Part shown: piece after piece, positions 11,130 to 63,851 of the stretch
Layout of the letters: each line of letters begins with the position of its first letter
Numbering within the stretch: the stretch's first letter is position 1
Assembly (NCBI GenBank): GCA_017991375.1
Contig: JAGOQP010000002.1
Coordinates: forward strand, 2,259 to 66,258
DNA from: Minisyncoccota bacterium
GTDB taxonomy: Bacteria > Patescibacteriota > Minisyncoccia > UBA6257 > JAGOQP01
Direction: 5' to 3'
Length of the DNA stretch: 64,000 nt
The notes under the pieces: model-generated
Databases searched by the model: none
What the model saw: only the letters and a program-made list of their open reading frames with translations
What the model was told of the DNA's origin: nothing
Position numbers and translations under genes: made by a program

Positions 11130-11298
11130 TTCAACGTTCAACTTTCCACACCCCGTCCACTCTTCGGCTTGCCCTGTTCTCACTCGTTTAACTTTCCACT
11201 TTCCACTCGTTCGTACCCCCGAGAGGAATATCCTTCGCCTCTCGTTTCGCCTTGCTTTCGTTCGTTTAACTTTCCACTTTTCACTTTCCACTCGTTCG
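11130..11298 (-). repeat. tRNA-Arg(CCU) 3'-flank element: GGAAAGTTAAACGA-type repeats plus a duplicated tRNA 3' end
   Basis: Bottom strand reads tRNA - CGAACGAGTGGAAAGTGAAAAGTGGAAAGTTAAACGAA - CGAAACGAGAGGCGAAGGA - TATTCCTCTCGGGGGTA (copy of the tRNA 3' 17 nt, top-strand 11215-11231) - further GGAAAGTTAAACGA repeats; same architecture as at 26205-26436. Confidence 0.7.
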
Positions 11299-11371
11299 TA
11301 CCCCCGAGAGGAATCGAACCTCTATCTATCCCTTAGGACGGGACTGTTCTAATCCGTTGAACTACGAGGGT
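11299..11371 (-). tRNA. tRNA-Arg (anticodon CCU)
   Basis: Reverse-complement: acceptor ACCCTCG/CGGGGGT, D-arm GTTC-AACGGATTA-GAAC, anticodon stem GTCCC/GGGAT with loop GTCCTAA, T-arm AGAGG-TTCGATT-CCTCT; 73 nt. Confidence 0.75.
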
Positions 11372-13013
11372 TTATAAGCAAAAAACACGTTGAAAACAGC
11401 CCTTGGGTATTGTATGCTAAGTGCGCATAAAAATTCAAATACCATGGGCCTATGGTATACCGGTAGAACGCCTCCATGGCATGGAGGAGAACGGGGTTCA
11501 ATTCCCCGTAGGTCCACCAAAGTTGATTAGTCGCCTCGCTCGGCGCTTCGCGCCTCGCTTCGGCAGGCATTTCCGCAAGGAAATGCCAAGGGTTTTTGAA
11601 ATCAATCGTCAATTTTCCCGCCGCAAGGCGGCGGTTCGAGCCGATGGTTTTGAGAAAATTTTTCATTTCCGAAAAATTTTCAGACAAAATGAGATTTTTG
11701 GCTTGGTTGGCCTCTAAAATCCAATTTCGGGTGAGTTCGAGCCAATGATTTCCTTTTCGCTCAAAATCCGATAATTTTTCCTCAATATCTTTCTTTTCCG
11801 CCATTAGTTTGTTTTTCTTTTCCTGAAATTCCGCCAGTTCAAAACTGCCTTCAAGATAGCCGTCCATTAAGCGGTCTATTTTTGTTTTTATGGCGGAAAG
11901 TTCGGTTTTAAGATTTTGAGCGAAAAGGTCTGATGTTTGGCGGTTTTCGCTTTCCCATTCTTTCACTTTGCAAAGATATTTTTCCCGCCAAACATCGGGC
12001 AAAGAAACTTTTTGACAAATCTCTTTTACTTGCTCGGTCAAAACTTCTTCCCGCAAAAAGCGAGCTTGAGAACAATTTTGCGTTTTGCTTTTGTGGGTGC
12101 AACGATAATAAACAAATTTTAGTCCGCTTTTCTTGATGTGCCGTTCGGCTGTTATGGCATATCCGCACTCGCCACAAACCGCAAAATTGAGAAATTGAAA
12201 GTTTTTCGGTCCTCGCTTTTTGCGGGGCTTGCCGTTTGTGATTAACGCTTCTTGTATTTGGTCAAAAAGTTTCTTTGAAATCATTGGCTTATGCGATCCT
12301 TGATGAATTTCGCCACGATAGCGAAAATGTCCGTAATAGAATGGATTAGTCAAAATTTTCTGAATGGTGGAAAGATGAGGCAGTTTCCCGTCTTTGCCAA
12401 CCAAGCCAAGAGAAAACATTTTGCCTTGAATAGCGGTAAGCGTGTAATTGCCAGTGGCAAAAGCCCGCAAAACTTCTTTCACTTTGTTAAAAGTTTTTCT
12501 ATCGGGTTCTATAGTTCGCAGACGAGGTTCGTTGAAATATCCGAGCGGGGCTTTTGCCGATAGCTCACCGCGTCTTATTTTCTGCCTGATTCCGCGCAAA
12601 ATGTTTTCTCTTAAATTGTCGGTGTAATACTTTGCTTGTCCGAAGGCGACAGACAACATAAATTTTCCCTGCGGTGTCGCTTCAAACCAAAATGTGGGGA
12701 ATTTTAGCGATTCAATCTTTTTTGTGTCCACAAGGTAAATTACTTTTCCGCCGTCTATTGAATTTCTAGCCAATCTATCGGGATTCCACGCTAAAATTCC
12801 CGAAGCGTTGCCTTTTTCAATTTCCGAAAGCATAAAATTAAAAACTTCTCGGCCCGGCTCTTTGGCTGTTTTGCTTTCGTAAAATTCTTTGACGACAAAA
12901 AGATTGTTTTGTTTGGCAAACTCGCGAAGTTCCGTGAGCTGGGCCTCAATAGACAAAACTTGTCTTTCCTCGTCCTCGCTTGATTTGCGACAATAGATAA
13001 AGTATTTTATCAT
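11349..13013 (-). CDS. large serine recombinase (resolvase/invertase N-terminal domain + recombinase domain + zinc ribbon + coiled coil)
   Basis: N-terminus MIKYFIYCRKSSEDEERQVLSIEAQ...AWNPDRLARN (serine-recombinase catalytic domain); CGECGYAITAERH...YYRCTHK zinc ribbon. The ORF has no stop until 11349, so it reads through IR-A, antisense tRNA-Ala and into tRNA-Arg; the true C-terminus is probably upstream (~455 aa to the IR boundary). Confidence 0.85.
   Translation of the reverse strand: MIKYFIYCRKSSEDEERQVLSIEAQLTELREFAKQNNLFVVKEFYESKTAKEPGREVFNFMLSEIEKGNASGILAWNPDRLARNSIDGGKVIYLVDTKKIESLKFPTFWFEATPQGKFMLSVAFGQAKYYTDNLRENILRGIRQKIRRGELSAKAPLGYFNEPRLRTIEPDRKTFNKVKEVLRAFATGNYTLTAIQGKMFSLGLVGKDGKLPHLSTIQKILTNPFYYGHFRYRGEIHQGSHKPMISKKLFDQIQEALITNGKPRKKRGPKNFQFLNFAVCGECGYAITAERHIKKSGLKFVYYRCTHKSKTQNCSQARFLREEVLTEQVKEICQKVSLPDVWREKYLCKVKEWESENRQTSDLFAQNLKTELSAIKTKIDRLMDGYLEGSFELAEFQEKKNKLMAEKKDIEEKLSDFERKGNHWLELTRNWILEANQAKNLILSENFSEMKNFLKTIGSNRRLAAGKLTIDFKNPWHFLAEMPAEARREAPSEATNQLWWTYGELNPVLLHAMEAFYRYTIGPWYLNFYAHLAYNTQGLFSTCFLLINPRSSTD
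11446..11519 (+). tRNA. tRNA-Ala (anticodon GGC), CCA encoded
   Basis: Acceptor GGGCCTA/TAGGTCC with the G3:U70 Ala identity pair; anticodon stem CCTCC/GGAGG with loop ATGGCAT; T-arm CGGGG-TTCAATT-CCCCG; ends ACCA. Confidence 0.8.
11514..11637. repeat. IR-A left copy (124 bp)
   Basis: Reverse complement of 13156-13279 with 2-3 mismatches; contains hairpins GGCATTTCC-gcaa-GGAAATGCC and CCGCCGC-aa-GGCGGCGG; outer end overlaps the tRNA-Ala CCACCA. Confidence 0.9.
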
Positions 13014-16480: not shown

Positions 16481-16522
16481 CTCTACCACAAATCTCCACG
16501 ATCGTGGAGATTTGTGGTAGAG
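16481..16522. repeat. 42-bp perfect palindrome CTCTACCACAAATCTCCACGATCGTGGAGATTTGTGGTAGAG
   Basis: Self-complementary; second copy (36 bp) at 32075-32110; both followed by AAGTGTTA. Confidence 0.95.
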
Positions 16523-30841: not shown

Positions 30842-31267
30842 ATGGCAAAAGCAGTAAAAACAACATTAAAGATACAACTTCCCGCAGGAGCGGCAACGCC
30901 AGCTCCTCCAGTGGGAACGGCACTCGGTCCGCATGGTATTAACCTGGCGCAATTTTGTCAGCAGTTTAATGACGCGACTAAAGAAATGACTGGTAGCGTT
31001 ATCCCGGCGGTGATTACGATCTACGAAGACCGAACATTTGAATTTAAGCTCAAAACACCCCCAGTTTCTGATTTGCTCAAAAAAGCAGCTGGTGTACAGA
31101 AGGGGAGTGGTAATCCGCTTAAAGATAAAGTAGGCACCGTTACGCGCGCACAAGTCAAAGAGATTGCGGAAAAAAAGATGGCAGACCTCAATACAACAAA
31201 GATTGAATCGGCTCAAAAGATTGTAGAGGGGGCGGCTCGCTCAATGGGAATTACTATTGCTGAATAG
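30842..31267 (+). CDS. rplK: 50S ribosomal protein L11
   Basis: [34 protein letters not shown]...; start at the internal ATG of the printed ORF. Confidence 0.9.
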
Positions 31268-31348
31268 ACAAAAATAGGATGTATTTTTATAAACACCCTC
31301 GGTATATGCCGAGGATGTTTTGGTATGTGATGTATCGCCCGAAAGCAC

Positions 31349-31378
31349 TTGACAAAATAGCATAAAATGTGCTATAAT
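31349..31378 (+). promoter_or_regulatory. consensus sigma70-type promoter TTGACA-N18-TATAAT
   Basis: ttgacaaaatagcataaaatgtgctataat; upstream of the GC-rich ORF at 31523. Confidence 0.6.
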
Positions 31379-31522
31379 CTGTTTGTTACAAGCACGCTAA
31401 CATATTACTTGCAGATAACAGCTCACAAAAACTGTACATGGGAATTGACCCAAAAACAGTGGTGAGCTCTTACACAGCATGGAGCCCGACTAGGAATCGG
31501 GTAAGATGCCAAGGAGGATACC

Positions 31523-31939
31523 ATGGCAAAAAGTGTTCAGTTTGTTCTCCCCTCCGCTCTCACTCTGCCCTTTTGGGCAAGGGGGGTGGCGGAAAACCAC
31601 GAAGAACCCTTTGTCGGCAAGAACGTGGAGCTCGAGTTGGTTGAGTTCTGCTCTGCCGGCGAGCCATACACCAGTGGCGAGGAGATGCTCAGGCGCTCTC
31701 TCGCCAAGACCATGCCCACGGGCAACCGGACATTCGAGCACTTGGCCGCCCATCAGGAGATCATTCCGGAGGAGTGGCGGGAGTTTGTGCTCGTTTTCCC
31801 CGGTACGGTTCTGCTCGACGAGCGCGGCCTTCGCTGCGTTCAGTGCCTGGCCGTCCGCAATGGCCGGTGGGGTCGGTACGACTATTGGCTCAGTCGCAAC
31901 CTCCGCTCCTGCTGCCGCGTCGTCGGATTCTGCAAGTAG
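31523..31939 (+). CDS. GC-rich (about 60%) hypothetical Cys-containing protein (138 aa), probably horizontally acquired
   Basis: AAGGAGG 5 nt upstream of the ATG; compositionally distinct from flanks; C-terminus RCVQCLAVRNGRWGRYDYWLSRNLRSCCRVVGFCK. Lies where rplA is expected downstream of rplK. Confidence 0.55.
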   Translation: MAKSVQFVLPSALTLPFWARGVAENHEEPFVGKNVELELVEFCSAGEPYTSGEEMLRRSLAKTMPTGNRTFEHLAAHQEIIPEEWREFVLVFPGTVLLDERGLRCVQCLAVRNGRWGRYDYWLSRNLRSCCRVVGFCK

Positions 31940-32074
31940 TTTTCCCTGGGGATCTTGGAGTTCTTGCGCTCTGCCGCGCTTGGCTCCTTGGTCCCTTTTA
32001 ATTTTTCAACAAAACTGATATGGTGGAAACGGATATTAGGTTCGTATGCGTACGGTCAAGAATTTTGCGTCTTG

Positions 32075-32110
32075 TACCACAAATCTCCACGATCGTGGAG
32101 ATTTGTGGTA
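32075..32110. repeat. 36-bp palindrome TACCACAAATCTCCACGATCGTGGAGATTTGTGGTA (copy 2)
   Basis: Same element as 16481-16522; located at the distal end of the GC-rich insert. Confidence 0.95.
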
Positions 32111-32278
32111 AAAAGTGTTAAACACTCCGTGTTTTAAGATATGAGCTCTAAACTTGTCTAAAGAGTGCTTAATGTTTCTCACCTGACTTGTTTTTTCTCA
32201 CTATTTATTATCCACTAATTGCTTTACCTATTTTCTCGTTTGCCTTCTTTGTTGTAACTAAGGTACTATAAGAGAGAT

Positions 32279-33727
32279 ATGGAAACGCGTTATCAACCAA
32301 CAATCGGGCTTGAAATACACGCAGAATTGGCGACCAAAACGAAAATGTTTTGTTCGTGCGCGAACGACGAAACGCAACTAACGCCAAACACAAATGTATG
32401 CCCCGTTTGTCTTGGGCATCCGGGGACATTACCGGTTCCCAATCAAACAGCGATTGATATGGTGGTAAAAACAGGGCTTGCGTTACAGTGTGCCATAAGT
32501 CGCGCGTCAAAATTTGATCGAAAAAATTACTTTTACCCGGATCTCCCAAAGGCATATCAAATAAGTCAGTATGATCAACCATTGTGCGAACACGGATCAT
32601 TTACGCTTCCCACTGGTAGTGTTATTCGCATTAAAAGAATTCATTTAGAAGAAGATGCCGCTGGGCTCTCTCACTCGGCCGATAATAAACACAGCTTGGT
32701 TGATTTTAACCGAGCCGGCGTGCCGCTTATGGAGTTGGTTACCGAACCAGATTTTCACACTGCCGATGACGCGGTTTTATTCGCGCAAGAATTACAGCTA
32801 CTCTTGCGCTATCTTGAGGTTTCTGATGGTGATATGGAAAAAGGACATATGCGCATAGAGGCAAATATCTCAATTGCTCCCCAGGGATCAGACAAGTTGG
32901 GAACTAAAGTTGAGGTAAAAAATCTAAATTCGTTTCGTGCGGTAAAGCGCGCGATCACGTATGAAATACATCGGCACGAAAAGATGCTATTGGAAGATCG
33001 TCACATAGACCAAGAAACGCGTGGGTGGAACGACGAAAAACAAGAAACATTTTCCCAACGATCAAAAGAAGAAGCACACGATTATCGTTACTTTCCCGAA
33101 CCGGACATCCCGCCACTAGTACTTGCCGATGAATACATTGAGCGTATTCGCGCGTCTGTGGGAGAGTTGCCGTGGGAGAAACGTAAACGGTTTTCCCATG
33201 AATACAATCTTTCAGATACACAGAGCGAATTTTTAGTTCAAGATGAAAAACTCTCAGCGTTTTTTGAACACGCTGTTTCGGAGCTCAATACCTATACTCA
33301 CAAAATAGATATTCAACTTTTATTTAACTATCTAGCGTCTGATGCGCAGGGTCTGGCGACAGATAGGGGAATGCCTATATATGTATCACGACTAACACCC
33401 GCGCATCTTGCGCAATTGGTCGCGTACGTCTCGGAAGAAAAAATATCGAGCCGTGTGGCAAAAGATGTGCTTGCGCGTGTTTTTGATGATGGCCAAAGTC
33501 CACAGGACATCATTATGGCCGAAAATCTTTTTCAGGTATCGGATGTAAGCGCTCTTGAAAGCATGGTGCGTCTGGTAATTGATCAAAACGACAAAGCTGT
33601 TTTAGAATATAAACAGGGAAAGCTTAACGCGCTCCAGTTCCTTATGGGGAAAGTAATGGCGCAGAGCAAAGGAGCGGCTAATCCCGATGTGGTCAAAACA
33701 ATACTTGCAAAATTATTAAATATGTAG
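32279..33727 (+). CDS. gatB: Asp-tRNA(Asn)/Glu-tRNA(Gln) amidotransferase subunit B
   Basis: YQPTIGLEIHAELATKTKMFCSC...VCPVCLGHPGTLPV; 482 aa. Confidence 0.9.
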   Translation: METRYQPTIGLEIHAELATKTKMFCSCANDETQLTPNTNVCPVCLGHPGTLPVPNQTAIDMVVKTGLALQCAISRASKFDRKNYFYPDLPKAYQISQYDQPLCEHGSFTLPTGSVIRIKRIHLEEDAAGLSHSADNKHSLVDFNRAGVPLMELVTEPDFHTADDAVLFAQELQLLLRYLEVSDGDMEKGHMRIEANISIAPQGSDKLGTKVEVKNLNSFRAVKRAITYEIHRHEKMLLEDRHIDQETRGWNDEKQETFSQRSKEEAHDYRYFPEPDIPPLVLADEYIERIRASVGELPWEKRKRFSHEYNLSDTQSEFLVQDEKLSAFFEHAVSELNTYTHKIDIQLLFNYLASDAQGLATDRGMPIYVSRLTPAHLAQLVAYVSEEKISSRVAKDVLARVFDDGQSPQDIIMAENLFQVSDVSALESMVRLVIDQNDKAVLEYKQGKLNALQFLMGKVMAQSKGAANPDVVKTILAKLLNM

Positions 33728-35084: not shown

Positions 35085-35169
35085 TATATTAAAAATATGC
35101 TAGCATATAATCACGAAAAGTTCAAGAACGTACACAAAAACAGGGCAAAAAAACGCAAGGAGGAAAATC

Positions 35170-35331
35170 ATGTTGGAAGTACTTTTGCTGTCGCTCCCGA
35201 TCACAGCTCCTCTCCTTATCGGTGGGGGGCTGGTCGTCCTCTTCGTCAGAAAGAGGGCGATCACCACGCTGCGCCGGAGGAAGAACAGCCGGCACAGCAA
35301 GAGGCCCCACCAGAAGAAGCTCGTGATCTAG
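35170..35331 (+). CDS. 53-aa GC-rich small membrane peptide with polybasic tail (type I toxin-like)
   Basis: MLEVLLLSLPITAPLLIGGGLVVLFVRKRAITTLRRRKNSRHSKRPHQKKLVI; AAGGAGG 6 nt upstream; rho-independent terminator downstream; not on the >=60-aa ORF track. Confidence 0.55.
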   Translation: MLEVLLLSLPITAPLLIGGGLVVLFVRKRAITTLRRRKNSRHSKRPHQKKLVI

Positions 35332-35351
35332 ATTCACGGGCACAGAACACA

Positions 35352-35383
35352 AGAGCCGCGGCGCACGCCACGGCTCTTTTTGT
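35352..35383 (+). terminator. rho-independent terminator
   Basis: AGAGCCG-loop-CGGCTCT followed by TTTTTGTT. Confidence 0.6.
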
Positions 35384-35440
35384 TGCCGAGCTTATTTGTA
35401 GTGGTATACCATCAAAATTTTCTATATTTCTATATCTACG

Positions 35441-35585: not shown

Positions 35586-36155
35586 ATGAGACGCGTCTCG
35601 CGAATCGAGTTTTTGAAAAATGTGCATAGTGGTAATTTTTCAAATGCATTTACGGCATTCCTGTTTTCGTTTGGGTCGGTCGATATTCTACGAAAAAATT
35701 TGAGATCTATTGGAAATAATAGTTCGATAGATTGTCATGATGATGAGAGAAGAAAACTGAAAAGAAGATTTGATGTGGTTATGTGCCGTCTTAAAAAAGA
35801 TGGGATGATAAAAGAAGATGGGCATATAACAAAGAGGGGAATTATTTTTTTATCAAGTATTATTGGTCGTGAAAGTAAATATTTACCGACGCGATCATAT
35901 CAACATGGCAAAAGTGACACAATAACATTAGTCACATTTGATATCCCAGAAAAATATAAGAGATATCGCGAATGGTTACGGTTTGTTTTGCGAGATATGG
36001 GATTTTCGATGCTTCAGCGTAGTGTGTGGATAGGTAAAGTAAAAATTCCAAAGGAATTTTTGACGGATCTAAAAAACACTAAAATGATTCCATTCGTAGA
36101 AATAGTTGAAATCTCAAAACTCGGCTCTGTAGAAAGAATTTCCAATGCGGGATAA
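35586..36155 (+). CDS. winged-helix-like N-terminal domain fused to a Cas2-like C-terminal domain (orphan; PaaX-like architecture)
   Basis: C-terminus ITLVTFDIPEKYKRYREWLRFVLRDMGFSMLQRSVWIG aligns with Cas2 N-terminal beta-alpha-beta core (compare [38 protein letters not shown]); N-terminal ...RKLKRRFDVVMCRLKKDGMIKEDGHITKRG looks like a wHTH; no cas1/cas9 or CRISPR array in the window. Confidence 0.6.
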   Translation: MRRVSRIEFLKNVHSGNFSNAFTAFLFSFGSVDILRKNLRSIGNNSSIDCHDDERRKLKRRFDVVMCRLKKDGMIKEDGHITKRGIIFLSSIIGRESKYLPTRSYQHGKSDTITLVTFDIPEKYKRYREWLRFVLRDMGFSMLQRSVWIGKVKIPKEFLTDLKNTKMIPFVEIVEISKLGSVERISNAG

Positions 36156-48177: not shown

Positions 48178-48840
48178 ATGATTTTTCATATTCTCTCAGT
48201 CATTCCTCATGTATTGGATGCGTATGTTAATGAATCCATCGTGGGGCGTGCTCAAAAGAAAAAACTACTATCGGTTAAAACGTACAATATCCGTACGTGG
48301 GCGACTGACAAGCATAAAAAAGTTGACGATCGTCCATTTGGTGGGGGAGCAGGAATGGTTTTGAAGGTTGAGCCTATCTATAGAGCAGTTGCATCAATTC
48401 GTGCCGCGATAGCAAGAGGAAGAAAAAAAACAAAAACACGAGTGATTCTCTTTAGTACGCGTGGGACACTCTTTACCCAAGAGAAGGCAACGCAACTTTC
48501 TAAATACAATCATATTATTCTCATCTGTGGACGCTATGAAGGAGTTGATGAGCGTGTCGCTCGCTATATTGCCGACGAAGAAATTTCTTTAGGCGATGTG
48601 GTATATTCAGGGGGGGAAATTCCCGCGCTCGCTGTGGTGGACGCAGTTGCGCGAAAAATACCAGGGGTATTGGGGAAGTATGAATCGTTGGAAGAGATTC
48701 AGGGAAGCTATCCAACATATACTCGTCCGGAAATATTTATTCCTGATTCAAAGAACAAAAAGAAAAAGTGGATAGCGCCCGCGGTACTAAGATCTGGTGA
48801 TCACAAAAAAATAGAAAACTGGCGGGCAATTGACAAATAA
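48178..48840 (+). CDS. trmD: tRNA (guanine37-N1)-methyltransferase
   Basis: [20 protein letters not shown]...; start at the internal ATG. Confidence 0.9.
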
Positions 48841-48911
48841 TAATTTGTATGCTATAATAGCGCACAGGACACTAAAAAATCACACACTCACGCTGCGAAA
48901 AGGAGATTCAC

Positions 48912-49121
48912 ATGCGTGGAATCGGTTTCATTTGGTTGGTTAACACCTTCGGCCTCTTTTGGTCGGGGGTAATACTTCTCACAGTCGCCACTTTCCTCGC
49001 CGTCTGCGCGGCAAGGAAATACGCTCAGAGAAAGGGGATGTTCTGGCACGCCGTTGGCGTCGTATCAATTGGTATCGGCGTTAACGGGATCAGGTATCTC
49101 TTGTTGTGGTTAAACAACTAG
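48912..49121 (+). CDS. small two-TM membrane protein (69 aa)
   Basis: AAAAGGAG ribosome-binding site; TATAAT at 48852. Confidence 0.45.
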   Translation: MRGIGFIWLVNTFGLFWSGVILLTVATFLAVCAARKYAQRKGMFWHAVGVVSIGIGVNGIRYLLLWLNN

Positions 49122-49380
49122 TTGGGTGTAGTGTGGTGCCCTCTCTTCCCCAGAGTCGCTAGATTCTGGGGGTCGCCAGTGCGCATAACACACGTTGTTT
49201 GCAGTGGCGATCCATTCTCTTGATTTTTGAATTTATATTTTGTTATAGTGTAAACGGCGTTATGGAGCCGTTTTATTGTGCTCACAAATGACGCCTTATT
49301 ACAAAGTAAGAATAATTCAACTCTGTCGTTATTGCTACGCGATAAAGTGAAACGGAGTTAGCCGTAAAACGGCACATACT

Positions 49381-56702: not shown

Positions 56703-57003
56703 CAAATAATAGTAAATAGTGGAAAGAGGAAAGTGATTAATGGTTAGTCCTCCTACCCCGCCGCGGAGGGTACGAAAAAATAGGCTACGTAGTGGAGTGT
56801 TTAAAGTAGAACGTGAAACGTTGAACGAAGAAAAGAGGAATAAATAATCGTTGATCTTTAATCTTTAATCCTTAACTGGGAGCGGGGAGAGAATCATTAA
56901 TCTTTCATCGTTGATTATTAACCGCATGCCATTCATCTCTAATCGTTATTCGTAATCCATTACCCGTTCCACGTTCATCGTTCCGCGTGTAACTTGTTTA
57001 GTG

Positions 57004-57032
57004 TTGACATTTGCTATCTTTTATGGTAACAT
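57004..57032 (+). promoter_or_regulatory. sigma70-type promoter TTGACA-N17-TAACAT
   Basis: ttgacatttgctatcttttatggtaacat; followed by a ~110-nt leader with alternative hairpins (GAACGCT...AGCGTTC and CGCTGGGAAA...TTTTCCAGCG). Confidence 0.5.
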
Positions 57033-57163
57033 CCGTCAGTTAATACAGCACTCTGGGAACGCTAAAAAAATCGCTGGGAAACTTACTTTTCCAGCGTTCA
57101 GGAAGTTTTGTTAGAAACCAAGAACGAAAACCCCAGACAACTTAGACCCAAAGGAGGTCTGCT

Positions 57164-58054
57164 ATGTCGAAGAAGCTCGTCGGCCTGTTTGTGGCGATTT
57201 TCATCGCCATCTTCGTCAACGTTTTCTGCGCGAACATCGCGTTCGCGCAGATGCCCGTGGGAACTGCGCCCGACATCCTCGCTCAGTGGGAAGAGGTCGA
57301 GTGCCCCAACGGGTACTACGACATCGGACGCGCTGCCGTCAACCGGAATCGGATTCTGGAAGACGGGGAGTGCTACGTGGAATTCGCGTTCGGGATCCCG
57401 GGGAAGATGGGATACCGGCGCGGGTTTGGGGGGAACCAGTGTCTCCCCAAGCGTGAGATGTTCATCATCGACAGGGCCTCCGTCAGTGAGACGGGGGTGA
57501 TCAACAAGGGTACGCGGGTCGACATCCGTCGATGCGGGAACGGTTTCGAGTTGGGGATCGTTCTCAACATCCTCAACGCGGAGCGCGTCGAAGGGGAGGG
57601 GTGCGAGATGGGCTTCTGGGAAAAGAAGCCGGACCCGCCGAAAGCTGAGGCGGCGCCGACTTCACCTCCAGCTCCACCAGCTCCACCAGCGCAGGAGACA
57701 CCAAAGGTGGATGCACCTCCGATCCCCTCAAGAACGACTGTCGTCAACAACTACCCCCCCGCCTTCTCCGACGAACAGGTCGCGGAGATGCTCAAGAAGG
57801 CGGTTCAACCTCCAAAGAAGGAGAGGGGTTGGTGGAATCGCAACTGGGGATGGGTCGCTGGTGGAGTCGTTGTCGCCGGCGCGGTCATCGCGCTTGGTGA
57901 CAAGAAGGACAAGAACGACAACGGCAACAAGCCGACCATCTCGGGGATCAAGGGGGTGGTGGCAGGAGGACGGAATTCGCCGCCACGATTTGCTGGTGGC
58001 GGGGGAGGGTTTGGTGGTGCTGGCATGACCGCCGGCATCCGTGTCCGCTTCTAG
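57164..58054 (+). CDS. GC-rich (about 62%) secreted Cys-containing, Pro-rich protein with C-terminal TM and Gly-rich tail (296 aa)
   Basis: AAGGAGG 6 nt upstream; signal peptide MSKKLVGLFVAIFIAIFVNVFCANIAFA; PAPPAPPAQETPKVDAPPIPS linker; TM WVAGGVVVAGAVIAL; composition unlike the host. Confidence 0.6.
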   Translation: MSKKLVGLFVAIFIAIFVNVFCANIAFAQMPVGTAPDILAQWEEVECPNGYYDIGRAAVNRNRILEDGECYVEFAFGIPGKMGYRRGFGGNQCLPKREMFIIDRASVSETGVINKGTRVDIRRCGNGFELGIVLNILNAERVEGEGCEMGFWEKKPDPPKAEAAPTSPPAPPAPPAQETPKVDAPPIPSRTTVVNNYPPAFSDEQVAEMLKKAVQPPKKERGWWNRNWGWVAGGVVVAGAVIALGDKKDKNDNGNKPTISGIKGVVAGGRNSPPRFAGGGGGFGGAGMTAGIRVRF

Positions 58055-58071
58055 CAACAACTTCCTGGTGT

Positions 58072-58110
58072 GGGTCGCGCGTCAAAGGACACGCGCGACC
58101 CCACTGTTTT
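58072..58110 (+). terminator. rho-independent terminator
   Basis: GGGTCGCGCG-loop-CGCGCGACCC followed by CACTGTTTT. Confidence 0.65.
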
Positions 58111-63347: not shown

Positions 63348-63851
63348 ATGAAGTCAAAACAGCAAAAGATCAAAGAAATAGAACAAGAAACAGCGCTTGT
63401 TGATAGTGCTCAGTCGCTTATCTTCGTTGATTTTGCAAAAACGCCAACAAAAGATATTGTCTCTCTCAAGCAGGCGTTGGAGCATATAGAGAGCGTATAT
63501 AAGGTGGTCAAAAAGCGCTTGCTCAAAATTGTTTTAGGAAAAAAGGAAATTCCTGTTGATCCAAAATCATTTTCGGCACAGTTAGCAACCGTGTTTTCTC
63601 CTAAGGATATTTCAGAATCTGCGGGGGTGGTATACCGATTTGCAAAAGAGAGAGAAAAAGACGGGGGAGCGTTTAAGGTACTGGGAGGATACGACGTGAT
63701 CGCGCGTACGTTCTTTGGTGAACAAGATATCAAACGCATTGGACAACTTCCTTCTCGCGAAGTGCTCTTGGCACAGCTGGTCGGTATGGTCCAGGCACCG
63801 TTGCGATCTCTGGCGTATGTGCTTGATCAAGTAGCAAAGAAGAACGCGTAA
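63348..63851 (+). CDS. rplJ: 50S ribosomal protein L10
   Basis: ...REVLLAQLVGMVQAPLRSLAYVLDQVA typical L10 C-terminal region; followed by rplL. Confidence 0.8.
   Translation: MKSKQQKIKEIEQETALVDSAQSLIFVDFAKTPTKDIVSLKQALEHIESVYKVVKKRLLKIVLGKKEIPVDPKSFSAQLATVFSPKDISESAGVVYRFAKEREKDGGAFKVLGGYDVIARTFFGEQDIKRIGQLPSREVLLAQLVGMVQAPLRSLAYVLDQVAKKNA

Follow-up and report, generated by a model that had tools for sequence, protein, structure and literature searches.

A cassette between rplK and gatB of a Minisyncoccota genome appears to encode a DGR target protein, most likely orphaned and with a frozen variable repeat

Introduction

Mtd of Bordetella phage BPP-1 and TvpA of Treponema denticola are described target proteins of diversity-generating retroelements (DGRs), with a C-type-lectin fold. 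Each has a variable repeat (VR) at its C terminus, in the last ~40 codons of the gene; the variable codons are NNC or NNT and arise from AAY codons of the template (TR); and a GC-rich hairpin follows the stop codon. In phage DGRs this hairpin has a 7-10 bp stem and a GRNA tetraloop, and the distance between VR and hairpin in published DGRs is 4-34 bp (PMC3240598). The DGRs of CPR/Patescibacteria ('clade 2' of Roux et al. 2021; the ungrouped CLec and UVR1-6 of Wu et al. 2018) have small, single targets, with VR classes that are missed by domain databases. Other targets are remote, as in the Treponema DGR with multiple targets: a VR gene with an intact hairpin stands with no TR or reverse transcriptase (RT) beside it, and has a known cognate TR that differs from it only at adenines.

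Here we describe a gene of this kind in the genome of a Minisyncoccota bacterium. The stretch of DNA analysed (hereafter the window) comprises 64,000 nt of the 108,454-bp contig JAGOQP010000002.1, and the gene, which we call ORF138, lies between rplK and gatB. We conclude, with a probability of about 0.85, that window positions 31337-32056 form a self-contained cassette coding for a DGR variable (target) protein, and that this copy is most likely orphaned, with a frozen VR. What is new is an unannotated DGR target; the system itself is already known.

ORF138 shares with Mtd and TvpA all three features named above. However, it has no detectable sequence similarity to either protein; it is far smaller, its 138 aa comprising the lectin domain alone; and no TR, Avd or RT adjoins the window copy. 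Its hairpin is longer than that of the phage DGRs (6+6+4 pairs with a 6-nt loop) and, unlike the phage hairpin, doubles as a rho-independent terminator. The likeness to CPR/Patescibacteria DGRs extends to the host lineage, to the small and single target with a VR class missed by domain databases, and to complete relatives (loci L091 and L092) in which target(VR), TR, avd (minus strand) and RT (plus strand) follow one another. Judged by its sequence, ORF138 would work like a target of the CPR-restricted, cell-encoded DGRs (PMC8144416; PMC5758913). The window copy differs from these in lying apart from any DGR core and in having a VR that is static between two strains. It resembles remote targets in its VR gene and intact hairpin with no TR or RT beside them, but no cognate TR was found in the 64 kb, and a stub of spacer points to the loss of a core that was formerly adjacent.

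Results

Layout of the cassette

The cassette and the palindrome that lies beyond it are made up as follows, in window coordinates.

31337-31413, plus strand: conserved promoter and 5' end, comprising a consensus sigma-70 promoter and the first ~35 nt of the transcript
31414-31522, plus strand: structured leader (RNA fold z-score -3.1)
31523-31939, plus strand: ORF138, 138 aa, a predicted DGR variable (target) protein with a putative C-type-lectin-like fold
31811-31939, plus strand: VR, the last 43 codons of ORF138, with the variable codons within 31823-31936
31948-32006, plus strand: three-part GC-rich hairpin (31948-31995) and T-run (fold z-score -5.2)
32007-32056, plus strand: apparent remnant of a VR-to-TR spacer, which aligns to locus L088 at ~1195-1250
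32076-32109, no strand assigned: perfect 34-nt palindrome, with a second exact copy at 16485-16518

We derived this anatomy from an alignment of the window with two homologous loci, L001 and L088, and inspected three more (L089, L090 and L102) separately. L001 encodes the closest homologue of ORF138 (70% protein identity), downstream of efp in another CPR contig; the L088 protein is 64% identical. The same cassette, with AT-rich flanks, is found in both of these further assemblies. The promoter, ribosome-binding site, 138-aa ORF, GC-rich segment and palindrome that a sequence-only reading of this DNA had described are all present.

The promoter matches the consensus at 12 of 12 positions (-35 TTGACA, 31349-31354; 18-nt spacer; -10 TATAAT, 31373-31378) and has an extended -10 with a TG (TGCTATAAT, 31370-31378). 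Two such perfect sigma-70 sites were observed in the 64 kb, whereas 0.03 would be expected by chance. The other, TTGACA-N17-TATAAT within 48830-49125, shares ~94% identity with the promoter region of the L088 target gene across ~31 nt and, by eye, appears to serve a hydrophobic ORF of ~69 aa located between trmD and rpsB. The 31337-31413 segment is 92% identical to L001 over 74 nt, at a different genomic site. The 5' end of the cassette can be aligned in part to L088, and a similar promoter and leader precede the L089 gene when judged by eye. Exact DNA searches with the conserved promoter and 3' end gave no match in viral contigs, and the promoter pattern had no match in JGI metagenomes.

The leader contains a long hairpin (~31408-31481), which lacks a section that this hairpin has in L001 and L088. 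A small hairpin follows, CCCGA...TCGGG at 31485-31501, whose stem bases are altered with pairing kept in L001, L088 and L089 (by eye). The Shine-Dalgarno sequence AAGGAGG (31511-31517) lies 5 nt upstream of the ATG at 31523. The consensus promoter would thus be followed by a ~140-nt structured leader, a strong Shine-Dalgarno sequence and a 138-aa protein.

The downstream hairpin begins 8 nt past the stop codon of ORF138. It is kept in five homologous loci, with 16 pairs, 4 of which show compensatory changes. Together with its T-run, it terminates transcription of the cassette. A GC-rich inverted repeat shortly downstream of the VR is what a DGR target would have, although the size and loop here are unlike the phage consensus; the hairpin is likely the counterpart of the hairpin/cruciform needed downstream of the VR for DGR retrohoming. 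By analogy with phage BPP-1, it would mark the retrohoming site.

After the T-run, 50 nt still align to L088, with 21 of 21 bases identical in CGGATATTAGGTTCGTATGCG. Homology of the cassette to L088 stops at ~32056, and L088 continues to its TR at 1459. The palindrome (ACCACAAATCTCCACGATCGTGGAGATTTGTGGT) starts 20 nt past this end of homology, and its second copy lies between an ORF and tRNA-Pro. We considered whether it belongs to the cassette and rejected this, because none of the 101 loci that we fetched, every homologous locus included, contains it. It may act as a terminator or a recombination site, or be a genome-specific repeat.

ORF138 belongs to a large family without a domain model

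Several long ORFs overlap at this locus. GC at the three codon positions of ORF138 is 0.62/0.45/0.76, compared with ~0.57/0.36/0.40 in rplK, nusG, gatB and gyrB, and the third-position value (0.76 versus ~0.40 in these neighbours) identifies its frame as the coding one. The protein is annotated by NCBI as a 'hypothetical protein' (MBP6855518.1 / KBC26_00880) of a 'Candidatus Pacebacteria/Paceibacterota' MAG. Relative to its closest homologues (L001, L088 and L089) it lacks ~63 N-terminal codons, and the missing part includes a hydrophobic stretch in those proteins, for example IVSGLGFAASFFIALF. Short proteins consisting of the lectin domain only are common among family members.

A seven-sequence alignment of the family, used as query, retrieved eight related loci, and a search of 1.8 billion representatives with the seven-member profile gave 2481 clusters at E <= 1e-3. 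The homologues keep the motifs SGEEM...IPEEWR.(F/Y)VLVFPGT. Pfam, NCBIfam and PHROG have no family for ORF138 or for 65 of its relatives, a profile search of PDB sequences with the family returned spurious matches only, and hmmsearch of a six-frame translation found no second paralogue in the 64-kb window. The analysis therefore gives a function-level label to MBP6855518.1 and to the ~2,500 clusters that lack a Pfam, NCBIfam or PHROG model.

The AlphaFold2 model of ORF138 is confident (pLDDT 90). Foldseek support for a C-type-lectin-like fold is weak, and a Foldseek search of the model against viral structures returned nothing. As modelled, the VR is carried on what would be a C-type-lectin-like fold.

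Some homologues of ORF138 are paired with a TR, Avd and RT

Evidence that this is a DGR target family comes from homologous loci. In L088 the TR lies 330 bp downstream of the gene. Over 128 nt, the VR (997-1124) and the TR (1459-1586) differ at 18 positions, and at 17 of these the TR has an A. Three JGI metagenome loci with more distant family members show the same adenine pattern, with 16/18 (L091), 19/22 (L092) and 17/18 (L095) VR/TR mismatches on TR adenines. In both L091 and L092 the TR is followed by bAvd (PF22296) on the opposite strand and then by an RVT_1 reverse transcriptase with the motif YxRYADD (E 6e-18 for RVT_1 in L091). These adenine-specific TR/VR pairs, together with bAvd and RVT_1, make the ORF138 family a bona fide DGR target family.

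We take the mechanism for ORF138 from the established DGR model. In complete relatives, with the TR 330-400 bp downstream of the target and bAvd and the reverse transcriptase beyond it, TR RNA would be copied with misincorporation opposite adenines, and the cDNA would overwrite the VR. Codons derived from AAY, on the ligand-binding face, would thereby be randomized.

The VR of the window copy carries the pattern of diversification

The VR of the window copy is homologous to the VR/TR pair of L088. Between the window and L001, 31823-31936 contains 24 differences, distributed 14/9/1 over codon positions 1/2/3 (dN 0.315, dS 0.042). Outside the VR, ORF138 has a dN/dS of 0.39 relative to L001, and the flanks are 92-94% identical (promoter region 92%, 3' untranslated region 93.5%). 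The differences from L001 fall on 17 of the 37 positions with A in the L088 TR, compared with 7 of 93 elsewhere (Fisher p = 1.8e-6). A VR-type substitution pattern thus separates the window copy from its closest homologue.

The residues at variable positions (R, Y, S, G, L, N, C, H, A, I, D, V and F) are all within the NNC/NNT set, and third-position A in the VR is 3%. ORF138 therefore has the C-terminal VR of a DGR target, one that varies at positions 1 and 2 of AAY-derived codons. The same codons account for its Cys-rich tail: five of its six Cys are among the last 35 residues because TGC is an NNC codon at diversified sites.

The window copy is probably orphaned

We found no DGR core in the window. 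By blastn, its 64 kb contain no TR copy of the VR, and an A-wildcard scan gave a best score of 93/129, inside the background tail. Searches of the 64 kb for RT (tblastn with the L091 RT; Pfam on large ORFs) and for Avd (tblastn; Pfam on large ORFs) found neither. All three components, absent here, are present in homologues, and the TR-VR pair that defines a DGR is thus shown in homologues only. Around the family member in L090, the fetched sequence likewise contains neither a TR-like repeat nor a gene of the reverse-transcriptase family.

A sister strain is represented by L102, in which this gene, with its N-terminal deletion and an essentially identical VR, occupies the corresponding site. 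Positions 1-754 of L102, aligned with window 31244-31998, contain 27 differences up to 31642 and only 2 in 31643-31998. One of these two falls in the VR and neither is a TR-adenine site; this comparison therefore gives no sign of ongoing diversification. The L102 allele is a mosaic, with 3-11% divergence up to 31642 and 0.6% over the remaining 356 nt, and several of its 5' variants match L001. The abrupt change in divergence at 31642 suggests recombination between alleles of the target gene. The near-identical VR indicates that there has been no re-diversification since the two alleles last shared their 3' half. Because that half differs by 0.6%, the argument for a frozen VR spans a short evolutionary time only, and recent recombination may explain it.

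The absence of TR, Avd and RT from the 64 kb, the ~50-nt spacer stub and the same VR in L102 together lead to the conclusion that the gene is probably an orphaned target with a frozen VR.

A different reading, which we consider possible though unlikely, is that ORF138 remains active as a remote target and that a DGR core (TR, Avd and RT) located outside the 64-kb window continues to diversify it in trans. Remote and non-adjacent DGR targets are documented (PMC5758913; PMC8144416). Moreover, the VR, its GC-rich 3' end and the downstream hairpin are intact in the window copy, as are ORF138, its promoter and its ribosome-binding site, and the GC enrichment and adenine depletion of ORF138 equal those of loci with an adjacent TR. 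However, all TR-adenine-type positions of the VR are identical in L102 despite the 3-11% divergence of the 5' part, and the reduction of the VR-TR spacer to a 50-nt stub suggests that an adjacent core was deleted.

If the copy is orphaned, as we prefer, ORF138 is a DGR target minus its adjacent template and reverse transcriptase, with a perfect promoter kept, and would still be expressed from that promoter. Such a gene bears on the frequency at which hypervariable genes become fixed.

GC-richness is a property of the family

GC is 57-63% over 31500-32000, compared with 43.6% for the window. This GC-richness belongs to the ORF138 family and not to the insertion in the window. Among 13 family loci, 11 have a target ORF whose GC content exceeds that of its contig by 5-21 points; the only loci without the enrichment are L002 and L098, which encode the same protein and have no TR nearby. 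In L091 and L092 only the target and TR are GC-rich, whereas avd, RT and the neighbours are host-like (in L091, 55% for target and TR versus 27-38% for avd, RT and host genes). Adenine is depleted as well: third-position A is 6-14% in the most enriched family loci, compared with ~30% in host genes, and 6-8% in ORF138, the part upstream of the VR included. The target genes of L091, L092, L095, L001, L088, L089 and L097 are GC-rich and adenine-poor along their whole length.

Avoidance of adenine at constant positions is expected inside a TR/VR, but the DGR model does not explain why it extends over the whole ORF. We offer, as a speculative proposal that is more doubtful than not, that whole-gene GC enrichment with sense-strand adenine depletion is a signature of CPR DGR targets. 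If it were, either selection for an adenine-poor sense strand or GC-biased gene conversion by repeated cDNA homing might be at work. DGR targets could then be found by composition alone, orphans could be dated as the bias decays, and the target-only bias in GC and adenine would provide a cheap, testable signature for DGR targets in fragmented CPR assemblies.

A second GC-rich island, at 57000-58110, bears on this proposal. It carries an ORF (57164-58054, 296 aa, GC3 0.75) with a signal peptide, a Pro-rich linker, a TM segment and a Gly-rich tail, and with its own TTGACA promoter, ~130-nt leader, AAGGAGG and terminator hairpin. In the related contigs L099 and L101 the ORF keeps both its position (PCMT - ORF - giant Fn3 protein) and its GC-richness, and it is vertically inherited. 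We rejected it as a DGR target, because its differences from L099 fall 28/26/64 on codon positions 1/2/3, an ordinary substitution pattern, and no repeat accompanies it. Since this unrelated ORF is equally GC-rich without a VR signature, a DGR-specific cause is one possibility only.

If the gene had simply been gained horizontally from a donor of high GC and had nothing to do with a retroelement, the GC island would reflect donor composition only. ORF138, at ~61% GC, does stand out from a 43.6% GC genome, its homologues occupy differing insertion sites, and the window contains that second, unrelated GC-rich gene. We nevertheless regard this explanation as very improbable. The promoter, leader and 3' flank that travel with the gene are AT-rich and 92-94% conserved, GC-richness in complete loci is confined to the target gene and TR and does not extend to the adjacent avd, RT and host genes, and the VR substitution pattern, with the TR pairing in homologues, ties the family to DGRs. 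The TR pairing and the composition of complete loci have already largely refuted the donor reading.

Loss of rplA is probably a trait of the clade

Upstream of the cassette are secE, nusG and rplK. Its immediate flanks are as follows.

30842-31267, plus strand: rplK, ribosomal protein L11 (Pfam Ribosomal_L11_N and Ribosomal_L11, E 1e-26 to 1e-28)
31297-31324, plus strand: intrinsic rplK terminator, with a T-run after its 7-bp stem (terminator scan)
32279-33727, plus strand: gatB (Pfam GatB_N, E 2e-115)

L102 has the rplK terminator too, and there both stem arms carry changes. The sequence-only reading had pointed out that rplJ is far from rplK and that the window holds no rplA. Indeed, rplJ occupies 63348-63851 and is followed by the start of rplL, and E. 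coli L1 has no tblastn match in the 64 kb. That reading had left the choice between an absence of L1, as in some Parcubacteria, and disruption of the operon by foreign DNA.

Comparison with related loci favours the first. We fetched 80 loci by relatedness to the window RplK and scored each for L1 over the 6 kb next to rplK. With this query, 51 gave a match directly after rplK (E 1e-42 to 1e-59), whereas the other 29, among them all the closest relatives, had no L1 in that interval. RplK identity to these L1-less loci is 58-81%, with L008, L012, L013 and L077 the closest (78-81%), and none of the 29 has rplJ near rplK. Many share the order gyrB-secE-nusG-rplK-gap-gatB-...-miaA (miaA on the minus strand), and gatB is a conserved synteny partner of rplK in many L1-less loci. 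In rplK without rplA next to it and rplJ/rplL unlinked, these 29 loci and the window resemble the L1-less Parcubacteria ('OD1-L1', Brown et al. 2015). A preprint (bioRxiv 10.1101/2022.01.07.475337, citing Brown et al. 2015) also states that L1 was lost in a Parcubacteria group. The absence of rplA beside rplK looks like an old, clade-wide trait of a Parcubacteria (Paceibacterota) lineage. Loss of L1 is already known and is mere background for the cassette.

The gap between rplK and gatB is 106-3127 bp in the L1-less loci and usually contains tmk, sometimes dcd/dut, thyX or a dCMP-deaminase-like gene. The interval (window 31268-32278) is a variable hotspot of the L1-less clade. Neither tmk nor a remnant of it is present in the gap or anywhere in the 64 kb of the window. 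To call this slot the expected position of rplA, as had been done, is misleading, because in this clade it normally holds tmk, with or without other nucleotide-metabolism genes, or almost nothing.

The suggestion of disruption by foreign DNA survives in part. Homologues elsewhere follow efp or a methionyl-tRNA-synthetase-like gene, so the cassette is not native to the rplK-gatB site. However, the closest related loci also lack rplA beside rplK; the cassette therefore did not displace it.

We consider it highly improbable that an intact rplA lies elsewhere in the genome and that the insert either displaced it or arose from a chimeric assembly. In most bacteria rplA does follow rplK, and the genome beyond the 64-kb window could still hold it. 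On the other side stand the 29 related loci with no rplA after rplK and a shared rplK-(tmk)-gatB order, the ease with which L1-bearing CPR loci are found by the same L1 query, and the published loss of L1. Moreover, L102 is an independent ENA scaffold with the same junctions, and the same gene, N-terminal deletion and site after rplK exclude a chimeric assembly. What had seemed an anomaly of a ribosomal operon resolves into two ordinary facts, a lineage-wide loss of L1 and a DGR target gene.

The GC-rich stretch is not a structured RNA

RNA genes often form GC-rich islands in AT-rich CPR genomes, and long ORFs overlap here, but the idea that the stretch is a structured non-coding RNA with ORF138 incidental can be dismissed as next to impossible, because Rfam gave only tRNAs and noise (the window at gathering thresholds; 31200-32300 at E <= 10, with no match for the stretch itself) and the evidence for a protein is strong at every level (codon-position GC, a 2481-cluster family with conserved motifs, a confident fold and a dN/dS of 0.39 outside the VR).

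Other features of the window

A large serine recombinase (Resolvase, Recombinase and Zn_ribbon_recom) is encoded on the minus strand within 11298-13013. Its ORF as listed, 11349-13013, overlaps tRNA-Arg (11298-11371) and tRNA-Ala (11446-11519). This region suggests an integrated mobile element nearby.

A 59% GC stretch at 35100-35400, between miaA and a Cas2/PaaX-like ORF (35586-36155), is covered by an ORF that is not protein-like; the stretch has no Rfam match and may be an unrecognised RNA gene.
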